Source of the DNA: a virus
Lineage: Duplodnaviria > Caudoviricetes
Length of the DNA: 64,000 nucleotides
Strand: one strand, 5' to 3'
Virus record (IMG/VR): IMGVR_UViG_3300027847_001698
The notes under the pieces were generated by a model. It was not told the origin of the DNA, searched no databases, and was given only the letters and a program-made list of their open reading frames with translations. Both the position numbers and the translations under genes were made by a program. This document shows positions 1 through 37,366 of the stretch, piece after piece (positions within the stretch are counted from its first letter, which is position 1; the number at the start of each line of letters is the position of its first letter).

Positions 1-172
1 TGCCTTCCTGACAAACGACTTCGTCGTCGTCCGCCATGTTGGAGTCGATTGACGCATCATAGGTCATTCCGGAACAGCCGCCGGCAACAACGCTGATGCG
101 TACGAACTGATCTTCGGATTGAATGGAATTGACGATACGCTTGCGCGCTTCGTCAGTGATAGCGAGATTCAT
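1..172 (-). CDS. Fe-S cluster carrier, IscA/SufA/ErpA (HesB) family; 5' part only, runs off the window
   Basis: Manual translation MNLAITDEARKRIVNSIQSEDQFVRISVVAGGCSGMTYDASIDSNMADDDEVVCQEG contains the GGCSG motif. AGAGG RBS upstream. Visibly GC-richer than the flanking DNA. Not in the ORF track. Confidence 0.88.
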   Translation of the reverse strand, partial: MNLAITDEARKRIVNSIQSEDQFVRISVVAGGCSGMTYDASIDSNMADDDEVVCQEG

Positions 173-436
173 GGTCCTACCTCTTCTAGTGCCTGTTCGC
201 CTACGTCCCGGGGGCGGCCGACATGTTGTTCTTTTGTAAACATTGTAAAACTCTTTTGGTAGGTTTTATTTTACCATTCAGGCCCACGGCCTTCAAAATA
301 TGAGTCTGGTGAACTAATCTATCCATAACTAAAAGTATTTAATAATTGTTCTAAATAATAATAACAACAATTTACATGTTATTAAAAGAAAGGAAAAAAA
401 GATGAGCTAGGGGTAACATCATGGGATGCACAAGAA

Positions 437-5303: not shown

Positions 5304-5615
5304 TTATACAACTACAGAATCTAATAGCAGGTCTGACGCATGTACACAATCAACTCTGTTATTGTAACCTTCTGTAGAAATAGCTATTATTCTATTCTTT
5401 TTAGTGTTGGGATTTCTAAATCTAAATCTCCACTCACCTCGTTTATCTTTGAATAGGTCAGCATCATGATCTCTACTCAGTATATAAACCAAGTCTATTA
5501 TCATTTCCTGCTTTTGAAGATATCCTTTGGGACATCTGGCAATTATTTTATTGTTATCTGCAATAAATTTCCAACGGTATCTACCCATTCCGTCTTTCCA
5601 TGTATCTATTCTCAT
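5304..5615 (-). CDS. YegP/DUF1508 tandem-domain protein
   Basis: Two repeats of KD..G.(Y/W)R(W/F).F...N..IIA...GY. Confidence 0.8.
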   Translation of the reverse strand: MRIDTWKDGMGRYRWKFIADNNKIIARCPKGYLQKQEMIIDLVYILSRDHDADLFKDKRGEWRFRFRNPNTKKNRIIAISTEGYNNRVDCVHASDLLLDSVVV

Positions 5616-5674
5616 TTTTAATTTCCATTATTTATGCATTCTTTTTCTAGCTATAGTCTTTCCGCTTATCTAAT

Positions 5675-5962
5675 TTATTCTTTGTAGTTTATAGCAGAAA
5701 CAAGTAAGAGTCTGAAATATGCTTCAGGGTCAGGACATTTATTGAGTGAAACCATTAATGCGGCTTCAAATGGATTTGTTATATTCTCATCGGTCATTAT
5801 CTGCTGCATCGTGGGATCAGCTATTGTTAATACTTTAGTATATTCTTCTTCTGTTGCGCCAGGTCGACCTTCTTTCATTTCTGCCAACATTCCAGAAAGG
5901 GTATTATCAACTGCGTCTGATAATTGCTGAGTTTGTTCAGGTGTTAGTTTTGGAATTTTCAT
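5675..5962 (-). CDS. Hypothetical protein
   Basis: 95-aa ORF. Confidence 0.6.
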   Translation of the reverse strand: MKIPKLTPEQTQQLSDAVDNTLSGMLAEMKEGRPGATEEEYTKVLTIADPTMQQIMTDENITNPFEAALMVSLNKCPDPEAYFRLLLVSAINYKE

Positions 5963-6022
5963 AAATAGTATTGGGTGTTAGAATAAAAATAAAATTAATT
6001 AATCTACTAAGAACAGGAATGC

Positions 6023-6190
6023 TCAAGCATACTTTACCATTTGGTTATCAGACGAATCATCTGAAATATTATCTTGTAAATCATTTATCTTGACATAAGT
6101 AGCCAAGTTACTAGTCTTGACCTTTTCAAGATATTCTTCATATTTATCAGTATCCAAGTGAGTTAATTTAACAACTGCATCTATAACTAC
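6023..6190 (-). pseudogene. Remnant C-terminal half of an HD-domain (RelA/SpoT-hydrolase-like) protein
   Basis: Reads VVIDAVVKLTHLDTDKYEEYLEKVKTSNLATYVKINDLQDN. No start codon; in-frame TAG two codons upstream. Confidence 0.6.
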
Positions 6191-6487
6191 CTTCTAAAGT
6201 GAGTGTCTATAAAGATAGGCGATTTTATCAACCTACCCCAAGAACAAAAAGAATCCTAAACAAGATTTAAATGAGAGAAATGCAGTTTGATGTATTCATA
6301 TTTTCTTTCTGTTCTTTTTGATGTATCCTATAATTTGCCCTCTAATATAGGCAATAGCTCTAGTTCGTATGGTGTTTATTTTGATCCCCCGTTGTTGCTG
6401 TTGTTGATGAGTGAGCTTTTAAATAAAAGTTACGCAACATCACAACGTGGGATCTTTATCAGTACCCCATCACTTCTTTTAATTATA

Positions 6488-6625
6488 TTATTGATATTTG
6501 ATACGACATTCATTACATCTAGCGTTTCTTTTTCCCATCGAAATGCACATTAGACAAGATGCCGAGAATGGAGTTCTCGAAGGAAAACTCGTGTGCTTTA
6601 GGATTTTAATCTCTAAAGGTTGCAT
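6488..6625 (-). CDS. 45-aa ORF with two CxxC motifs, ending in the left direct repeat
   Basis: MQPLEIKILKHTSFPSRTPFSASCLMCISMGKRNARCNECRIKYQ*; may be a by-product of the duplication. Confidence 0.3.
   Translation of the reverse strand: MQPLEIKILKHTSFPSRTPFSASCLMCISMGKRNARCNECRIKYQ
6491..6522. repeat. 32-bp direct repeat, left copy
   Basis: TTGATATTTGATACGACATTCATTACATCTAG, identical to 7639-7670. Confidence 0.97.
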
Positions 6626-6632
6626 TTTTTAA

Positions 6633-7634
6633 TCATAGTTCTTTTACAATTTTCCTTCTAAAAGCCCGAATATGCTCTGGTCCGGTACCGCAGCAACCGC
6701 CGATGATCTGAGCACCAGCCTGTAATAGCTCCGGTACAACAACCGCCATATCTTCAGCACTCTGATTATAGATTGTCTGCTGCTGTTTATCCAACTTCGG
6801 AATACCAGCGTTTGGATAAGCCATCATGGGTTTAATCGGGTTAATGCCTCTTGCCTTCATTGCCTCACGAAGTTCGATAATCCCCTGACAAACATATGGC
6901 ATACCCGTATGTTCAACTCGATGTTGCTCCGCACCGCAGTTGATTCCAAGCACATGAACGAAGTCTAAAAGACTAACGCCATCAGAATATTCGCCGCCGG
7001 ACAGGAAATCAAGTAACGAAGTTGCGGAGTGACCCCAGTCTGTTTTGTAGACGATTTTTCCCGTGGCCCGGTCTTTGGTATATTTATATGTACAGTTGAC
7101 AGCAATTGGCAGGTTGAATCGTCGGATGACATCAACTGCAATAGCTGCTTCCGTAGCAGAGAACATCGTTTCCAAACAGAACAGATCAATACCGGCCTCA
7201 GCCATTCTTTCCGCCACCCGTTCGTGTGCATCGCGCACTTTCTGATTTGGAATGCCGAAATCCGTGCCTCCAGCATCTGTCTCGATAGCTCCGGGTGAGG
7301 GTCCAATCGAACCAGCAACGTAGATATCTCTATCGCTGGCATCGGCTGAAGCCCTAGCAATCTCGACGGCACTGGTGACCAGTCCGTCAGAATCATCGGC
7401 ATCATGATCCGCCATCTCCAAGTGTAGTGGCGAAGCCACGAATGTGTTCGTTCCGATAATATCAGAACCAGCAGCAACGTAGGAATCGTGTACATCCCGT
7501 ACCGCTTCAGGATACAACTTAGTCGCCAAAGCACTGTTTGGCAGCTTAATGCCGCGATTGAAAAGCTCAGTGCCAAAAGCGCCATCAAAAAGAATCGGAG
7601 TCACATCCTGTAGGCGTTCAAGAAAGGTTTGCAT
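6633..7634 (-). CDS. Stand-alone homocysteine S-methyltransferase (Hcy-binding domain of MetH/BHMT/MmuM family)
   Basis: FDGAFGTEL, GTNTF, VAGSIGP, ETM, GINC, YPNAG and GGCCGTGPEHI motifs. Likely start is MQTFLERL at 7634; the ORF track extends it into the repeat. GC-richer than flanks. Confidence 0.93.
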   Translation of the reverse strand: MQTFLERLQDVTPILFDGAFGTELFNRGIKLPNSALATKLYPEAVRDVHDSYVAAGSDIIGTNTFVASPLHLEMADHDADDSDGLVTSAVEIARASADASDRDIYVAGSIGPSPGAIETDAGGTDFGIPNQKVRDAHERVAERMAEAGIDLFCLETMFSATEAAIAVDVIRRFNLPIAVNCTYKYTKDRATGKIVYKTDWGHSATSLLDFLSGGEYSDGVSLLDFVHVLGINCGAEQHRVEHTGMPYVCQGIIELREAMKARGINPIKPMMAYPNAGIPKLDKQQQTIYNQSAEDMAVVVPELLQAGAQIIGGCCGTGPEHIRAFRRKIVKEL

Positions 7635-7974
7635 ATTTTTGATATTTGATACGACATTCATTACATCTAGTATGAAGATCTACCATACCCATATGTTCAT
7701 TCATTAATGAATTTCTTACAAAGTCAGATAAAGAATCTAAAACACAAGATTCTACTATTAATGGGGATTTATGATTATATCCCCTATTAACTAATTCAAT
7801 AGCCAAATCATCATGTCTTTTTTGTAATGATCTAACTTCTAAATAATGCTTGTTAACATACCCATCCATTTTTGTGCCTTTTTTCATTGCCCCATAAAAC
7901 ATATGACATTCGCAATGTTCACCTAATAAATGTTGTCGGCACATTGTAGACGGGTCTACCATCCATAATCGCAT
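7618..7974 (-). CDS. Pyrimidine-dimer DNA glycosylase (DenV/endonuclease V-like)
   Basis: MRLWMVDP..MCRQHLLGEH N-terminus, HDDLAIELVNRGYNHKSPL, C-terminal RCNECR. Confidence 0.65.
   Translation of the reverse strand: MRLWMVDPSTMCRQHLLGEHCECHMFYGAMKKGTKMDGYVNKHYLEVRSLQKRHDDLAIELVNRGYNHKSPLIVESCVLDSLSDFVRNSLMNEHMGMVDLHTRCNECRIKYQKYANLS
7639..7670. repeat. 32-bp direct repeat, right copy
   Basis: Identical to 6491-6522; encodes RCNECRIKYQ of the glycosylase. Confidence 0.97.
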
Positions 7975-7992
7975 CTATTTCTCCAAGTTAAA

Positions 7993-8066
7993 GCGGATCC
8001 AGTAGGAGTCGAACCCACAGTCATAAGTTTTAGAAAGTCGTCCCAATGGAAGACTCTATTCTATGT
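7993..8066 (-). pseudogene. Degenerate tRNA-like element, possible CUA loop
   Basis: Intact T-arm GTGGG-TTCGACT-CCTAC. Acceptor 5' strand does not pair. Candidate anticodon loop TT CTA AA on a broken stem. Confidence 0.45.
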
Positions 8067-8093
8067 AGACAGTTCACAAAGTACCTTTCGTGT

Positions 8094-8288
8094 TCAACTC
8101 TTTAAGACTACGAGCTTTCTGTTTCTCTTGACGGATTTTGGCGCGCCGTCACATAGGTATTCAATCTCTACAATAATTTCACTTTTTTCTTCATAGATCA
8201 TATCCACTATGCCGTTGACTGGGTGTGGTCCAAATTTGAATGTAACCTTATCTCCGCGAGTTAGTTTGTCTACTTCGGATCTAGTCAT
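8094..8288 (-). CDS. Hypothetical protein
   Basis: 64-aa ORF with GGAG RBS. Confidence 0.6.
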   Translation of the reverse strand: MTRSEVDKLTRGDKVTFKFGPHPVNGIVDMIYEEKSEIIVEIEYLCDGAPKSVKRNRKLVVLKS

Positions 8289-8324
8289 TTCTCCCCCTTT
8301 CTTTTTTTCTTATTCATTGTCTTG

Positions 8325-8615
8325 TTACCGTTCTCCTGGTTGCCGTTTCTTCTTTGGTGCATATATAATCGGTGGTGGTTCTATCGTTTCATTCGCATAC
8401 CATGCCCCTATCCAATCTACTGCACTCTTTGGTAGCTTCCAGCACTTCGTGCGTCCATCTCCTTTCGGCCTATCATCTATGGCAATAATGTAGCCACCCT
8501 CTTGGTAGACGCTTATGTTACTAAATCCCCTACGTGTCAGACACTGCGCTATTGGATCGTGTCCTCTCTCTTGTGTTGCCTCTACCATATCTTGCTTTGT
8601 GACTAATATCCTCAT
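8325..8615 (-). CDS. Hypothetical protein
   Basis: 96-aa ORF with RBS. Confidence 0.6.
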   Translation of the reverse strand: MRILVTKQDMVEATQERGHDPIAQCLTRRGFSNISVYQEGGYIIAIDDRPKGDGRTKCWKLPKSAVDWIGAWYANETIEPPPIIYAPKKKRQPGER

Positions 8616-8713
8616 TTCTTCTCACCTATGCGCCAATCAATATTCATTAGTTCATCACTTCCATTTAGAGTTCAGTTGCTCTTAACTCTGCTTCGTCTCG
8701 AGACTCAGTACAA

Positions 8714-8789
8714 TGGTGGGACCGGCAGGACTCGAACCTGCAACCAACTGATTATGAGTCAGTTGCTCTAACCATTGAGCTACGGTCCC
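8714..8789 (-). tRNA. tRNA-Met or tRNA-Ile2 (CAU)
   Basis: Anticodon arm ACTGA-CT CAT AA-TCAGT; CCA encoded; paired first base so not initiator. Confidence 0.92.
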
Positions 8790-8865
8790 GTTTAAATCTT
8801 AACGAGCTCTTGTGTTATTTGATTCTTGTCTTATGGTTCTTTTACTTCTAGATGTAACTGGACTA

Positions 8866-9012
8866 CTAGTTTGTAGTATCTGCAGGTGTTTCAGCCGGAA
8901 CTTCAACTGCATCGGTGTTTGCTGGCGCGTCTGATTCTTCAGCTTGGTTTTGGTTGCATCCTGTGAATGTTAATGCGATTGCTATGAAAAATAATGCTAT
9001 GGCCTTCTTCAT
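8866..9012 (-). CDS. Small acidic lipoprotein (48 aa)
   Basis: MKKAIALFFIAIALTFTG|CNQNQAEESDAPANTDAVEVPAETPADTTN*: basic N-terminus, hydrophobic core, lipobox. AAGGA RBS. Below the ORF-track cutoff. Confidence 0.8.
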   Translation of the reverse strand: MKKAIALFFIAIALTFTGCNQNQAEESDAPANTDAVEVPAETPADTTN

Positions 9013-9047
9013 TGTATTTGTCCTTATGTTGATTAGTGATTTTAACG

Positions 9048-9105
9048 ATCTTATTGTTTTATTTTAGGAATAAATTTAAGTTAATTCTTTTATTGCTTTC
9101 GTTGG
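9048..9105 (-). repeat. Diverged copy of the tail-sheath gene 3' end (55124-55182)
   Basis: 58 vs 59 nt; 3 substitutions plus 1 indel by manual alignment. Confidence 0.9.
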
Positions 9106-9164
9106 AAACTTGAATGTAAATTTTGTTCTTTCGCTGTTTTTGATCCTGCTTCTTGGAAATAAAA

Positions 9165-9245
9165 TGGCCCGCCGACCAAGGGATTCGTCAATGAAATTAC
9201 ATACTTTTAACGAGTAAGTAGTTTGCATAACCCTAAGCCGGCAGA
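9165..9245 (-). ncRNA. Putative rod-like hairpin RNA ending in CCA
   Basis: 5' TCTGCCGGCTTAGGG pairs with 3' CCCTTGGTCGGCGGG; inner TACTTAC/GTATGTA stem; followed by CCA and TTTT. Confidence 0.5.
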
Positions 9246-9260
9246 ACCAAACTCATGAAA

Positions 9261-9337
9261 TGGTAGGCGGTGAGGGACTCGAACCCCCGACCTCTTCGGA
9301 GTAAACGAAATGCTCTAGCCAACTGAGCTAACCGCCC
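9261..9337 (-). tRNA. tRNA-Val(UAC)
   Basis: Anticodon arm TTTCG-TT TAC TC-CGAAG; CCA encoded; pyrimidine at position 37. Confidence 0.88.
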
Positions 9338-9629
9338 ATTCTGTACTCTTTATCTTTTTCGTCCTAATATGCTCTAGATATGAAATTGTATTAATCATAC
9401 CTGGATGTGATTGCATACCAACGATAAACATGTAATGTTTACTTTCCGACCCAAACAAGTTTGCCAGTTCTATCTTTGTTATTGTTCCGTCAGGATCTTC
9501 AAGTCGATCTATAAGTCAGGGAAGTGTCTCTGTGAATTGCCCACTGTCACATTCAACTATTAGTTAGCTATGTGTACTCACAAAAATTAGATTATGTTAT
9601 TCTTGAAATATGAGTAGAACTTCCTTTAC

Positions 9630-10307: not shown

Positions 10308-10913
10308 TTATTCCCCTTGTAATAATGCTTTTAAAGTAATAGCAACTTCAATCTTTTTAGATAGATTACTTGCTTCATCCATATTTTTATAGTTTTTGAA
10401 TTTTATCCATTGTTTAATAACTTCCTCAAGTCTAGACAAAACTAAAATTTCTTGAGTTTCAAATTCAGATTTTTTATTATTGCAGAGTCTACACATCACT
10501 TGATAATTATTTTGAGTGTTACTTCCGTCCTTACCTTTACATATTACATGATCTTTAGTAAAGAGAACTTCATCTCCATCATCATCAATCCCATATAAAT
10601 TTAAATGAAACTTGTCTTGTTTGTCGTGGCACTCTGCTGCAAAAAATGTACCTTCTAAATTACACGCGCAGCAAACAGTTCCCTTTTCAGCAAACAGTTT
10701 CAATCTTTGTGAAGCCATGTTAATATCTATACCATGAAAATTCATTCTTTGTTTAGGAATATTAACAGTTCGAATTATAGTTAATACTTCTTCTATTGTG
10801 AATGTACATTGTCGGGTTAGATTTTGTTTCTTTCTATTATCTCTATTTCGCCCCCGACCACCATGAACTCCTCTCCGTCTTTTACTCATAATTAACACAA
10901 GGCACATTAACAC
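10308..10913 (-). CDS. HNH endonuclease
   Basis: CCAC...TKDHVI...GSN...NYQVMCRLCNNKK. Confidence 0.85.
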   Translation of the reverse strand: MLMCLVLIMSKRRRGVHGGRGRNRDNRKKQNLTRQCTFTIEEVLTIIRTVNIPKQRMNFHGIDINMASQRLKLFAEKGTVCCACNLEGTFFAAECHDKQDKFHLNLYGIDDDGDEVLFTKDHVICKGKDGSNTQNNYQVMCRLCNNKKSEFETQEILVLSRLEEVIKQWIKFKNYKNMDEASNLSKKIEVAITLKALLQGE

Positions 10914-34145: not shown

Positions 34146-35182
34146 TTTTCCTTCTCTATTTTTAATACAGTTTCACATATATATTCAATATCATCATCAG
34201 TAAGAGTCAAGGATGATGGCAAATATACAATACTTTTATAAACTTTTTCTGTAACTGGGAATTCTTTATGTGAATAGAAATAATTATTATGATATATCGG
34301 AACGTAATATTGAGTTGCCGATATTCCTGATTCTTTTAATTTAGATATCAATGTTAAAGGGTCATCAGATCTAATTATAATTCCCCAGGATGAATCATAA
34401 CCATAATCAATTATATCTAAATATTGTTTATATTTATTCCATATTCTGTTTCGAATACTTAGTAATTCATCTAACTTCTCTAATTGATCTAGGCCGTATG
34501 CTGCAAGAATATCATTAAACTTAAGATTTAAACCTACATGTTCATGTATCCTAGTTTTTCTCCAGTTGCCACCTTGATCTCTTAATTGAAGACTTCTCTC
34601 GTAGATGTTTTTGTCGTTGGTAAATAATACTCCACCTTGACCAGTTGTAACTAGCTTAGGAACTGAGAATGAGAATGTGCCAAATAATCCTTTCTGACCA
34701 CAATCTCTAATACCTATTCCCTGACAAGAATCTTCAATCATTAAAACTTCGCTATCATCACATGCATCACTTATTAAATCTCTATCTTCACCACAATACC
34801 CATTATGGTTTACAAAGATAATACCTGAACATGCAGCCATGCGCTCTATGACTAAATCAGGATTCATGCATAGTGTATCTTCTTTTATATCTATCAATTC
34901 AATATCCAGATTTAAAAATTTAGCTACATTTGCTGCTGCCAAGAAAGAATATGCAGGAAACAAAATAGTTTCCCCTTTTATGAATCCACAGGCATTCATA
35001 CCTAACAATAATGCTGATGTTCCTGAATTAGTAGAAACGCAATACTTACTATTAGTTATCTCACATATTTTCTCTTCAAACTTTCTAACAGTTTCTCCTG
35101 GTCCTACGAAACCAGTTTCCATCTGACTACAAACTCTTTTAACACTAGATGACATTACTAATGGTTCTACTTGATGTATCAT
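34142..35182 (-). CDS. DegT/DnrJ/EryC1/StrS PLP sugar aminotransferase (perosamine synthase-like)
   Basis: NSGTSAL, IEDSCQ, FSFSVPKLVTTGQGG. Confidence 0.92.
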   Translation of the reverse strand: MIHQVEPLVMSSSVKRVCSQMETGFVGPGETVRKFEEKICEITNSKYCVSTNSGTSALLLGMNACGFIKGETILFPAYSFLAAANVAKFLNLDIELIDIKEDTLCMNPDLVIERMAACSGIIFVNHNGYCGEDRDLISDACDDSEVLMIEDSCQGIGIRDCGQKGLFGTFSFSVPKLVTTGQGGVLFTNDKNIYERSLQLRDQGGNWRKTRIHEHVGLNLKFNDILAAYGLDQLEKLDELLSIRNRIWNKYKQYLDIIDYGYDSSWGIIIRSDDPLTLISKLKESGISATQYYVPIYHNNYFYSHKEFPVTEKVYKSIVYLPSSLTLTDDDIEYICETVLKIEKEK

Positions 35183-35733
35183 GGTTTTGTTGCTTCAATA
35201 TTCAGACTTATCAACCGTCCAGTGGAATCCATATGTGGAATATATGCCATTGAATAATCATCGTAATCTTCTGGCATAACGTCTTGCCATCTATATCGAC
35301 TAACATGTGTAAACCCACATTCATATAAAGTTTCACTCATAGACTTGAAATCATAAGTTGTTTTTTGATAGATATATTTATTTTCTCCATCAACTATTAT
35401 CTTCCAACGTCCAAATATAGGACCTAATATACCTTGGTGATTTAAGTCACCGGTTGTTGAATATACACTAACTATTGATTCGAAATCGGGAACCGATAAT
35501 CTAAGAGTTCCGCCCGATTTTAATACTCTTTTCCACTCAGTTAAAACACCTGGTATTTGAAATCTATCAAAATACACTAATGCTCCACATGAGTAAATTA
35601 TGGATACACTGTCTGATTCAATCATAGGTAGAGTTTCTATTGTATGACAATAATCTATATGTTCAGAATTATTTATATCTACATGGACATATCCTGGAAG
35701 AAATCTATCTCCGCATCCCAAATGTAAATTCAT
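35179..35733 (-). CDS. Class I SAM-dependent methyltransferase
   Basis: LHLGCG, EWKRVLKSGG.LR.SVPD. Confidence 0.88.
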   Translation of the reverse strand: MNLHLGCGDRFLPGYVHVDINNSEHIDYCHTIETLPMIESDSVSIIYSCGALVYFDRFQIPGVLTEWKRVLKSGGTLRLSVPDFESIVSVYSTTGDLNHQGILGPIFGRWKIIVDGENKYIYQKTTYDFKSMSETLYECGFTHVSRYRWQDVMPEDYDDYSMAYIPHMDSTGRLISLNIEATKP

Positions 35734-36152
35734 TGACTCTGTCCTTGTTCAATCAAATGAGGAGTAATTCTAAATGTATCAGATTCATAATCACTTCCGC
35801 CTCTTGGACCTTTAGAGAAAACTACAAATTCATTATCTTCTAACATGTTTAAAGCGTGAATTTCATATGGAGTAGAAGTAATCAAATCTCCCACCTCCAT
35901 GATTTCACATTTAATGGAATCATTATCATCTCTAGCATCTGTATACCAATATTCCAATCTGCCTTTTGTAACCAAAATAGTTTGAGTACTTTGTTTATGG
36001 TAATGACTACCTCTCCATGCACCTTTTACTGATTTTATTATTGCAACATGATCTATTTTATCCTTATAAAATAGATCAGCTATCACTCCCCTATCATCTT
36101 CATGGACTTCTAATGGTTCTTTTACTTCATTCCATGAATTCCGTTTAATCAT
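35730..36152 (-). CDS. Cupin, NDP-sugar epimerase/isomerase-like (WxcM/RmlC-like)
   Basis: HEDDRG, RGSHYH, EIHA. Confidence 0.8.
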   Translation of the reverse strand: MIKRNSWNEVKEPLEVHEDDRGVIADLFYKDKIDHVAIIKSVKGAWRGSHYHKQSTQTILVTKGRLEYWYTDARDDNDSIKCEIMEVGDLITSTPYEIHALNMLEDNEFVVFSKGPRGGSDYESDTFRITPHLIEQGQSQ

Positions 36153-37366
36153 TCTGTTATCCCATCCATATCCATAATTATGGCTTTGGGATTTATATTA
36201 TATATAATTTCTTTAAGTTTACTTGATAGGTTCCATGACAATATCAATACATAAACCCCTTTATACTTTTCTAGTATTTCATCCCCGGTAATTAGTATTC
36301 TGCTTAATGGAGTATATTTTCCTTGTTTATATTCGGAACAATCCGTAACATAATCTATAACACTACTATCAAGATTATAAAAATTAAGAAATGTATTCCC
36401 CTTTGCTGCTGCACCAACTGCTACAATATTATGCCCCATAGTTTTCAAGGTATATATTTTCTGTAAAAAACTATTTCTTCTACTAAGAATACTTTGCATG
36501 AAAGAATCATACGTAGAAGGTTCAAATAAACCCATAGCCTCTTCTTGAGCTTTAAACTCTCTAACTGAATAAGGAGAACGTACTTTCTTCTTTCCTGCAT
36601 ATATTCTTAATGATCCACCATGATAATCAACAATCTCCGCATCATAAATATATAATCCAGCTTTTCCGAGTAGATTTTGTAAACCAGTTATCGTAAAATA
36701 ACTAACATGTTCATGATAGATTTGATCAAAACGTTGAGTCTCAACTGATGTTGCCCAATATGGTTGTTCACATACAAATGTTCCATTCTCTACTAGTACG
36801 CTTGCAACACCTTTAGCAAAATCTAAAGGATCATTAGAATGATTGAATACATTATTTGCTAGTACAACATCGGCGGCAGTCATATGATCTGCCATATTTA
36901 AATCAAAACACCCATGAATCACATCAATGTCATTTTCGTTAGATATATCCACCATTGCTTTTGCTGCATCTACTCCAGATACATTCATTCCAATAGATTT
37001 AAATTGATTACATAAATAACCATCATTAGATCCAATTTCTACAAGTATAGATTCTGGTTTCAATGATAATTTTTCAGTCACCGTTAATGCATATTCCTCC
37101 CAATGAGCTCTCGCTATTCCCGAATTAGATGATGTATACGAATAATCATAATCATTATATCGTTTAACAGCATCTGATTCATAACCCGTTTGGATATGTC
37201 CACACTTTTGACATAAATGACATTCTAATGGCAACACTGGTTCTGATTCTTCTAATCGTTCTTCCCCTATAAACGTATCACTAAATGGATGAACTCCTAA
37301 TTGAATTATAGGGATTAATGTTTTAGATTTACATGATAGGCATTCAGTTCTTCTCATTTTATCCAC
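36149..37366 (-). CDS. NDP-hexose C-methyltransferase
   Basis: C..C...LG.HP...CGH.Q zinc domain, EIGSNDG, FDQIYHEH, HGGSLR, GAAAKGNT. Confidence 0.9.
   Translation of the reverse strand: MDKMRRTECLSCKSKTLIPIIQLGVHPFSDTFIGEERLEESEPVLPLECHLCQKCGHIQTGYESDAVKRYNDYDYSYTSSNSGIARAHWEEYALTVTEKLSLKPESILVEIGSNDGYLCNQFKSIGMNVSGVDAAKAMVDISNENDIDVIHGCFDLNMADHMTAADVVLANNVFNHSNDPLDFAKGVASVLVENGTFVCEQPYWATSVETQRFDQIYHEHVSYFTITGLQNLLGKAGLYIYDAEIVDYHGGSLRIYAGKKKVRSPYSVREFKAQEEAMGLFEPSTYDSFMQSILSRRNSFLQKIYTLKTMGHNIVAVGAAAKGNTFLNFYNLDSSVIDYVTDCSEYKQGKYTPLSRILITGDEILEKYKGVYVLILSWNLSSKLKEIIYNINPKAIIMDMDGITE

Follow-up and report, generated by a model that had tools for sequence, protein, structure and literature searches.

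How does a cellular metabolic gene come to lie between two copies of the end of a phage gene, and what does it do there? The question is raised by a 64,000-nucleotide stretch of DNA (the window) from a phage of the Caudoviricetes, IMG/VR record IMGVR_UViG_3300027847_001698. At positions 6488–7974, where every gene is carried on the minus strand, a gene for a stand-alone homocysteine S-methyltransferase is bracketed by direct repeats that hold the 3' end of a gene encoding a DenV-like pyrimidine-dimer DNA glycosylase. A prediction made earlier from the sequence of this locus (the original prediction) described a snapshot of gene capture by duplication or microhomology recombination. The insertion and the duplicated target stand; that the capture was a fresh one is probably wrong. 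We find that a 1110-bp composite cassette entered the last codons of the glycosylase gene and that 38 bp of the target were copied twice. An explanation that combines this composite-cassette insertion, a mechanism free of recombinases, a second-hand history of the gene, a function as part of a split methionine synthase and a marine Lentisphaeria host is, as a whole, likely.

An unoccupied site and a duplicated target

The glycosylase (118 amino acids, 7974 to 7618, minus strand) matches PF03013 (Pyr_excise) with 59.4 bits against a cut-off of 23 (E 4.7e-16) and PHROG 1183. Its C-terminus in the window reads RCNECRIKYQKYANLS, followed by the stop, and the motif R-C-x-E-C is kept at this end across 158 glycosylase homologues. 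The methyltransferase (333 amino acids, 7634 to 6633, minus strand) matches PF02574 with 186.5 bits (E 1.3e-54). Some gene callers choose an alternative in-frame ATG at 7661, which falls within the glycosylase gene; we place the start at 7634 because homology to Lentisphaeria genes begins exactly at that ATG.

The perfect 32-bp direct repeats of the original prediction (6491–6522 and 7639–7670) are present and extend to 38 bp (6485–6522 and 7633–7670) with a single mismatch at 6490/7638, so that 37 of 38 positions match. The 38-bp repeat occurs at these two places only. The right copy (7633–7670, minus strand) encodes the C-terminus of the glycosylase, and the first two bases of the methyltransferase ATG belong to it. 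In the left copy (6485–6522, minus strand), an A-to-T change at 6490 creates a TAA codon.

A search with the glycosylase returned a 115-amino acid variant (P0121), identical over the aligned length and ending in KYQKYN, which is encoded on contig L008. This contig belongs to a sister phage, 97–99% identical, whose flanks are 94.6–99.3% identical to the window and which has no methyltransferase. A lone 38-mer in L008 (5103–5140) aligns with both repeat copies and is identical to the right one; the sequence upstream of it aligns with the glycosylase and the sequence downstream with window position 6484 and below, and the identity on the two sides is 98.7–99.3%. Compared with this empty site and its single 38-mer, the window thus contains 1110 bp of new DNA (6523–7632) plus a second copy of the 38-bp target. 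The unoccupied allele that the original prediction proposed to look for therefore exists, and the insertion with duplication that it postulated is seen directly. The junction coincides with the start codon, so that nothing from upstream of the donor gene was brought in. The original prediction gave the size of the insert as 1116 bp.

The original prediction also took the TAA of the left copy to be the ancestral stop of the glycosylase. The empty site instead reads KYQKYN and then a stop, which is how the original glycosylase ended; the TAA arose afterwards, by mutation of the redundant copy, which is decaying, and it was the insertion that turned the end KYN of the glycosylase into KYANLS. Most lineages have this one change; in the lineage of L105 an additional T-to-C change is confined to the left copy, which marks this copy as a neutral relic. 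It is the right copy that maintains a functional glycosylase, and the left one is being lost to mutation.

The filled arrangement recurs in many marine samples. The methyltransferase protein is also found on contigs from four other samples (JGI, ENA), three of which cover both junctions at 99.45% DNA identity with no gaps. An exact copy of the 64-amino acid protein encoded upstream is on record on 23 contigs from further samples, and of the nine with DNA, every contig that extends to the site shows either the filled arrangement or the right junction of it. Overall, over 20 independent marine contigs and runs have the filled form, more than half of 6200–8000 is present in at least ten marine runs, and the filled and empty alleles account for about 16 contig records and one, respectively. 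The filled allele is dominant in the sampled populations, and the insertion is fixed rather than transient. That prediction had also allowed for an absence of sequence spanning the junctions; both are bridged in independent assemblies, and single Logan contigs span the left repeat (6352–7039) and the right repeat (7587–7737). No excision product, circle or joint is listed in the Logan data, which consist of k=31 unitigs that break at the 32-bp repeat and hence are blind to excision products. Sequence depth in X4 (11.2 for the insert and 12.6–13.2 for the flanks) is too weak a signal to interpret.

Make-up and ancestry of the insert

The insert is mostly GC-rich, as originally described, with a GC content of 46–55% compared with a window average of 34%. 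The nearest cellular genes, in four marine Lentisphaeria metagenome-assembled genomes (MAGs) and three unbinned contigs, share 79–84% amino acid and 74–78% DNA identity with the phage gene. Homology to them begins exactly at the ATG, whose A and T come from the phage 38-mer, and the junction at the start codon shares at most about two nucleotides with donor-type sequence. At the other end homology stops near 6657 in all of the cellular relatives. The remaining 135 nucleotides (6523–6657, minus strand) form an AT-rich piece that is not Lentisphaeria-like and consists of the last eight codons of the methyltransferase (RKIVKEL and the stop) and a tail of 110 nucleotides with 37% GC. The window has no second copy of the tail, the fetched loci and viral_contigs have none either, and IMG/VR and the metagenome contig collection gave no match to this phage, to the tail or to the 38-mer. 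The tail has no similarity to the glycosylase or to the body of the methyltransferase, and its RNA folding is at background level. We considered whether it might be a diverged glycosylase end and dropped this idea, as it carries no L-x-E-L-x-x-R-C motif, which is common to glycosylase homologues.

A 45-amino acid open reading frame (ORF; 6625 to 6488, minus strand) runs from the tail into the left repeat copy and ends in RCNECRIKYQ followed by TAA. It has no Pfam, NCBIfam or PHROG family, and a search against 1.84 billion representative proteins gave three weak multi-stretch matches only, the best of which (E 6e-9) comprises ten stretches in an 833-amino acid protein; we judged them spurious. 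The repeat-derived end of this ORF gathers substitutions, and the ORF is most likely a by-product of the junction. At its start lies an inner imperfect repeat, AAAAAATGCAACCTTT (6615–6630, minus strand), which matches the start region of the methyltransferase at 7640–7623. The shared sequence AAAAA(T)ATGC(A)AACCTTT matches at 16 of 18 positions with two single-nucleotide gaps, a score reached by three of 2000 shuffles, so that the second microhomology noted in the original prediction holds up. We infer that an older capture, into another AT-rich genome, may have used this microhomology and duplicated it, and that the cassette carried with it a stub of that earlier context.

The divergence of the gene body also points to an old separation from cells. 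Between the phage and Lentisphaeria genes, nonsynonymous divergence (dN) is 0.10 and synonymous divergence (dS) about 1.9 (dN/dS 0.05), at a DNA identity of about 76%, whereas dS within the Lentisphaeria clade is 0.13–0.25. In the tree, which covers a large bacterial family, the phage gene branches as the sister of the marine Lentisphaeria clade and not within it (support 99/97). GC content at third codon positions (GC3) is 44% in the phage methyltransferase; the cellular genes have 68–73% and ordinary phage genes 26%. No protein 84–99% identical to the phage methyltransferase was present among 5.8 billion proteins.

Two phage alleles of the methyltransferase differ at 19 positions, 17 of which fall within a 91-bp recombination tract (7044–7134, minus strand), three of them non-synonymous. 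Both versions of the tract are about 83% identical to the Lentisphaeria genes and equally distant from them, and the tract implies that other diverged copies of the methyltransferase exist. Both alleles occur, in different marine runs. A diversity-generating retroelement was rejected as the source of the tract, because the changes are mostly synonymous and not adenine-specific and the alleles are equally far from the cellular genes.

The age of the present site can be judged separately. The window and L008 differ by about 2–3% and the repeats match at 37 of 38 positions, so that arrival at this site is roughly as young as the split of the two phages. On these comparisons the methyltransferase gene is old and probably second-hand, and its insertion at the present site recent. 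Some points tell against the second-hand history. The search for a donor proposed earlier succeeded in finding the nearest relatives, in marine Lentisphaeria, and not the immediate donor: no phage or cell was found that has a gene more than 84% identical or the 135-nucleotide tail. The term second-hand thus rests on relative divergence, and an unsampled bacterium of lower GC content could have been a direct donor.

A contrasting case is provided by a second insert in the same lineage, which encodes an IscA-like Fe-S carrier (window 1–225, continuing beyond the window start; L001 15445–15848). It is GC-rich, absent from L008, and its iscA gene is 99% identical at the amino acid level and 97.8% at the DNA level to that of a marine Lentisphaeria MAG that is one of the set of methyltransferase relatives, with host-like GC3. 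The insert is a patchwork of 38 nucleotides from inside another Lentisphaeria gene (one or two mismatches) and 366 nucleotides that comprise the iscA ribosome-binding site, iscA and the first ten nucleotides of the next gene. Its joins have 0–3 nucleotides of microhomology, and the target duplication is 3 bp. This insert shows what a fresh capture, with patchwork illegitimate joins, looks like in this phage lineage.

The near-identity of iscA to a Lentisphaeria gene also argues that the host is a marine Lentisphaeria bacterium, which on this sequence evidence is probable. The GC content of the phage (34%) lies 24 points below that of the probable host (58–61%). The same glycosylase protein is found on a contig of 229,015 bp, which makes this a jumbo phage. 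Fourteen tRNA genes and a tmRNA are present in the window. Among 50,697 GenBank phage records there is no close relative by DNA, and proteins are only 25–50% identical.

Mode of insertion

The insert boundaries read AAATAT/GCAAAC and GAAACG/CTAGAT. The ends of the insert carry no inverted repeats, the boundaries no GTTRRRY core or attC-like element, and 5600–9400 gave no Rfam or other structured-element match. In agreement with the original prediction, the precomputed Pfam hits for about 8 kb in either direction include no integrase or transposase domain; an HNH gene is located at 10308–10913. Given that no inverted repeats, recombinase or attC-like element were found, we favor replicative template switching or two offset end-joinings, that is, illegitimate recombination at the level of microhomology that would require no element-encoded recombinase. 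A strand would have departed from the phage template at AAATAT, switched to the cassette at the G of the start codon, and after copying it returned to phage DNA 38 nucleotides behind the exit point. The stretch between exit and re-entry would then be copied twice, so that the 38-bp duplication is the natural outcome of template switching and of offset end-joinings alike. The cassette itself would have been second-hand, with a Lentisphaeria-type gene body (6657–7634) that had long resided in AT-rich, probably phage, DNA, and with 135 nucleotides of AT-rich sequence attached to it from that earlier context. Other joins in this lineage, those of the iscA insert and that of an 835-bp insertion or deletion with 2–3 nucleotides of microhomology, support illegitimate recombination. 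Against a choice for template switching in particular, its product is indistinguishable from that of two offset end-joinings or of the integration of a circle through the 38-bp homology.

The last of these corresponds to a history in which the cassette was excised as a small circle from a related phage via the same repeats and then integrated in Campbell fashion. A single crossover between such a circle and one 38-mer gives exactly the observed structure, and mini-circles formed from PeSL cassettes are documented in T4-type phages (PMC2839356). A gene that is old in AT-rich DNA and young at its site would fit, as would the circulation of other alleles implied by the recombination tract. However, with a circle the duplication would merely have originated in another phage, the repeats represent a coding 3' end and not a regulatory cassette, and no circle, joint or second cassette context was found. 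This history is unlikely.

A fresh capture straight from the chromosome of the current host, as the original prediction had it, has in its favor that the closest relatives of the gene are cellular and belong to marine Lentisphaeria, from which the same phage did take iscA directly, that the insert is richer in GC than the phage, and that the repeats are nearly perfect. The comparison with iscA nevertheless counts against it: a gene just captured should resemble the 97.8% identity of iscA and not show 76% DNA identity and a dS of about 1.9. The position of the gene as sister to the Lentisphaeria clade, its GC3 of 44% against about 70%, its last eight codons and tail, which are not donor-like, and the want of any 84–99% identical sequence among the 5.8 billion proteins all speak the same way. 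We consider a fresh capture unlikely, and recent insertion of an older cassette remains the preferred account.

Quite unlikely, in turn, is an ancient insertion for which the empty site of L008 represents precise loss by recombination between the repeats. A perfect identity of 32 bp could support such recombination, and the filled allele is far commoner than the empty one. On the other hand, in L008 the right-copy A is joined to the left flank. Had the crossover fallen in the perfect 32-bp part, the T, and with it the TAA, would have remained; only a crossover in the last 5 bp would yield the L008 sequence. No 112-amino acid glycosylase ending in KYQ is present in the protein cluster, and a non-coding copy would not have stayed at 37 of 38 matches over the time implied by the dS.

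A site-specific mobile element, whether an integron cassette, a transposon or miniature inverted-repeat transposable element, or an integrase-mobilised islet targeting the 3' end of a gene, is very improbable. The promoterless single ORF that starts at the boundary and is followed by about 110 non-coding nucleotides has the look of one, as does insertion at the 3' end of a gene that is made whole again by a direct repeat. The inverted repeats, GTTRRRY core, Rfam match and nearby integrase or transposase expected of such elements are nonetheless missing within the limits given above, and a 38-bp duplication far exceeds transposase footprints. Lastly, an assembly artefact or chimera caused by the repeat can be dismissed: a repeat of 32–38 bp can mislead short k-mer graphs and the Logan unitigs do break there, but the identical structure is recovered in JGI, MEGAHIT and Logan assemblies of many samples, each repeat is bridged by single contigs with unique sequence on either side, and the repeat unitig has a depth of 22, about twice that of its neighbors (11–13).

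Predicted function of the methyltransferase

Residues 24–337 of the methyltransferase match positions 2–282 of the 283 in the PF02574 profile (cut-off 22 bits). All family-invariant residues are kept, including C233 in G-I-N-C-G and C314 and C315 in G-G-C-C-G, which confirms the retention of the zinc-binding cysteines claimed in the original prediction. In the alignment with Thermotoga maritima MetH, C314 and C315 fall on C272 and C273, and C233 is the inferred equivalent of the first zinc ligand. An AlphaFold2 (AF2) model of the enzyme has a pLDDT of 92.3 and a pTM of 0.92. By Foldseek TM-score normalised to the query, the nearest fold is the homocysteine module of MetH (1q7m and 8ssc, 0.77–0.78), followed by BHMT (0.73–0.76) and MmuM (0.64–0.69).

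The genomic context of relatives offers an indication of the methyl donor. A homologue with 63% identity heads an operon with genes for a URO-D methyltransferase, a corrinoid protein and a RACo activase. This conserved trio of URO-D-family methyltransferase, corrinoid protein and RACo activase is found in L099 (62–3333; Lentisphaeria MAG G001), where the corrinoid protein is encoded at 1126–1878, and in L096 (7024–11899). In one lineage the trio lies directly downstream of the methyltransferase homologue and a gene for a PF13769 protein.

When the phage enzyme was modelled in complex with the corrinoid protein of Lentisphaeria, the score was 0.72, compared with 0.01 for the best control. Of 78 solved complexes, 51 attain the mark applied to such models, as do two of 108 mismatched pairs. 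Runs of the model agree in at least 77% of contacts, the partner has a pLDDT of at least 75, and the predicted interface lies on family-invariant residues 116–124, 184–186 and 197–201.

A corrinoid partner is proposed on the basis of the operon of the relatives, the trio in Lentisphaeria and the complex model. Most likely, and with moderate confidence, the enzyme depends on zinc and forms methionine from homocysteine with a methyl group donated by a methyl-corrinoid protein of the host, and it corresponds to module 3 of a split B12-dependent methionine synthase. Of the candidate methyl donors listed in the original prediction, the methyl-corrinoid partner is now the best supported. Methyltransferase genes of the S-adenosylmethionine (SAM) type are located at 35179–37366 in the window, and it is plausible, as the original prediction suggested, that the enzyme might supply methionine and SAM for SAM-dependent sugar methyltransferases of the phage.

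As the original prediction stated, the glycosylase stop overlaps the methyltransferase start and no host ribosome-binding site is retained. The stop (7620–7618) lies inside the methyltransferase gene, 14 nucleotides past its ATG, in an overlap of 17 nucleotides, and the methyltransferase would be translated by coupling to the overlapping glycosylase gene.

Several observations qualify this picture of an expressed, corrinoid-dependent enzyme. The phage protein falls below the cut-off of every NCBIfam equivalog compared: 176 of 453 bits for YitJ, 132 of 338 for BHMT, 127 of 215 for MmuM and 97 of 1011 for MetH. In Lentisphaeria the methyltransferase gene is not adjacent to corrinoid genes, the trio being at a separate locus, and its neighborhood there (aroC, MarR, PhyH and a nitrilase-type hydrolase) is uninformative on function. 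No partner genes for a corrinoid protein or activase were found in the phage window. The docking score may reflect memory of solved MetH structures, and it shows likeness rather than binding. No Shine-Dalgarno sequence precedes the ATG at 7634, and the single RNA run covers only 6200–6411 and so gives no support for expression of the methyltransferase.

A more ambitious picture joins this function to the history of a circle. A recombinase-free, repeat-bracketed 1.1-kb cassette would move between marine jumbo phages as a mini-circle and let a 34%-GC phage of a 58%-GC Lentisphaeria host tap the corrinoid-bound methyl pool of that host, sustaining methionine and SAM for its own glycan methylation during infection. 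We regard this combination as a long shot.

Neighboring features and other differences between the sister phages

Promoter and terminator scans at the locus gave background levels. Just upstream of the glycosylase gene, at 7989–8022, is a T-arm-like sequence resembling the 3' parts of neighboring tRNA genes. As neither ARAGORN nor Rfam calls a tRNA there, the sequence could be what is left of one.

Further differences between the window and L008 lie nearby. L008 carries an intact gene for a 134-amino acid HD-type phosphohydrolase (5379–5783; PHROG 990). In the window (6023–6202), 229 bp of this gene including its start are swapped for a filler of ten nucleotides, and a 44-amino acid remnant ORF is left. 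The 835-bp stretch, which contains three small ORFs, is present in L008 (6130–6964) and missing at window position 5652/5653. About 50 additional non-coding bases are present in the window at 6323–6372, downstream of the left repeat copy.

Significance

The gain of cellular metabolic genes by phages is usually inferred by phylogeny alone. Here, one lineage keeps four things, an unoccupied site, a 38-bp footprint, a decaying relic copy and a fresh iscA capture, and three separate datings are possible, of when the gene left cells, when it reached its site and how the joins were made. The insertion is real and unusually well documented, and of an ordinary mechanistic kind. The analysis also provides a sequence-based assignment to marine Lentisphaeria as the probable host of an uncultured phage of at least 229 kb, across the large gap in GC content. 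A piece of a split B12-dependent methionine synthase would be added to the accessory functions of phages, and the proposed function is directly testable with purified proteins. For a phage, this probable function is a new one. PF02574 has no PHROG family, and the phage records searched gave only distant matches of 25–32% identity, mostly in unannotated fragments or metagenome-derived records.

Comparison with known systems

Split cobalamin-dependent methionine synthases are documented (PMC5764234, PMC12478193), and their homocysteine subunits, Phaeobacter inhibens PGA1_c13370 and Ruegeria pomeroyi MtgE (SPO1884), resemble the phage protein in being stand-alone PF02574 proteins of about 330 amino acids. 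Relatives of the phage gene likewise adjoin genes for a separate corrinoid protein and a RamA/RACo-type activase, and docking on a corrinoid protein is predicted. In contrast to these systems, the present gene is phage-encoded with no partner genes in the window, and the methyltransferase beside its relatives is of the URO-D family rather than the pterin-binding type. PRK07534 (betaine–homocysteine S-methyltransferase), which we take to cover these Rhodobacterales proteins, is the model against which the phage protein reaches 132 bits with a cut-off of 338.

The homocysteine module of MetH (Thermotoga maritima 1Q7M, Thermus thermophilus 8SSC) is the best match in both sequence and fold (E 4e-24, root-mean-square deviation 2.6–3.0). 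The zinc cysteines of G-G-C-C-G align, at an overall identity of 26–28%. The phage protein differs in not being fused to folate, B12 or activation domains, and the predicted interface is formed by a segment peculiar to its family, at about 176–264, in which K184, T186, Y196, T198, D199 and W200 are invariant.

As a locus, the insertion recalls the PeSL cassettes and mini-circles (Arbiol et al. 2010, PMC2839356), in that short direct repeats flank a lone accessory ORF and the site belongs to a variable region in a large phage of lytic type. Both lack a dedicated recombinase, and excision and re-insertion mediated by the repeats are conceivable here. However, the repeats described here are a one-off duplication of a coding 3' end, whereas those of PeSL are a dispersed motif of promoter and stem-loop, and no circles were observed here.

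The closest parallel in mechanism is the acquisition of morons and auxiliary metabolic genes by illegitimate recombination or template switching, with which the locus shares a cellular metabolic gene set among phage genes. Microhomology-mediated break-induced replication and fork stalling and template switching (MMBIR/FoSTeS, PMC2621351) agree in the 0–3 nucleotides of junction microhomology, the composite inserts and the duplication of target sequence between switch points. As for an auxiliary metabolic gene, occupied and unoccupied alleles occur in near-identical phages (L008 compared with the window and L001–L003), the junctions lack long homology, and the ancestry is cellular. Where this locus departs from other such genes is that a single lineage has kept the empty site and the footprint along with a fresh capture as a contrast.

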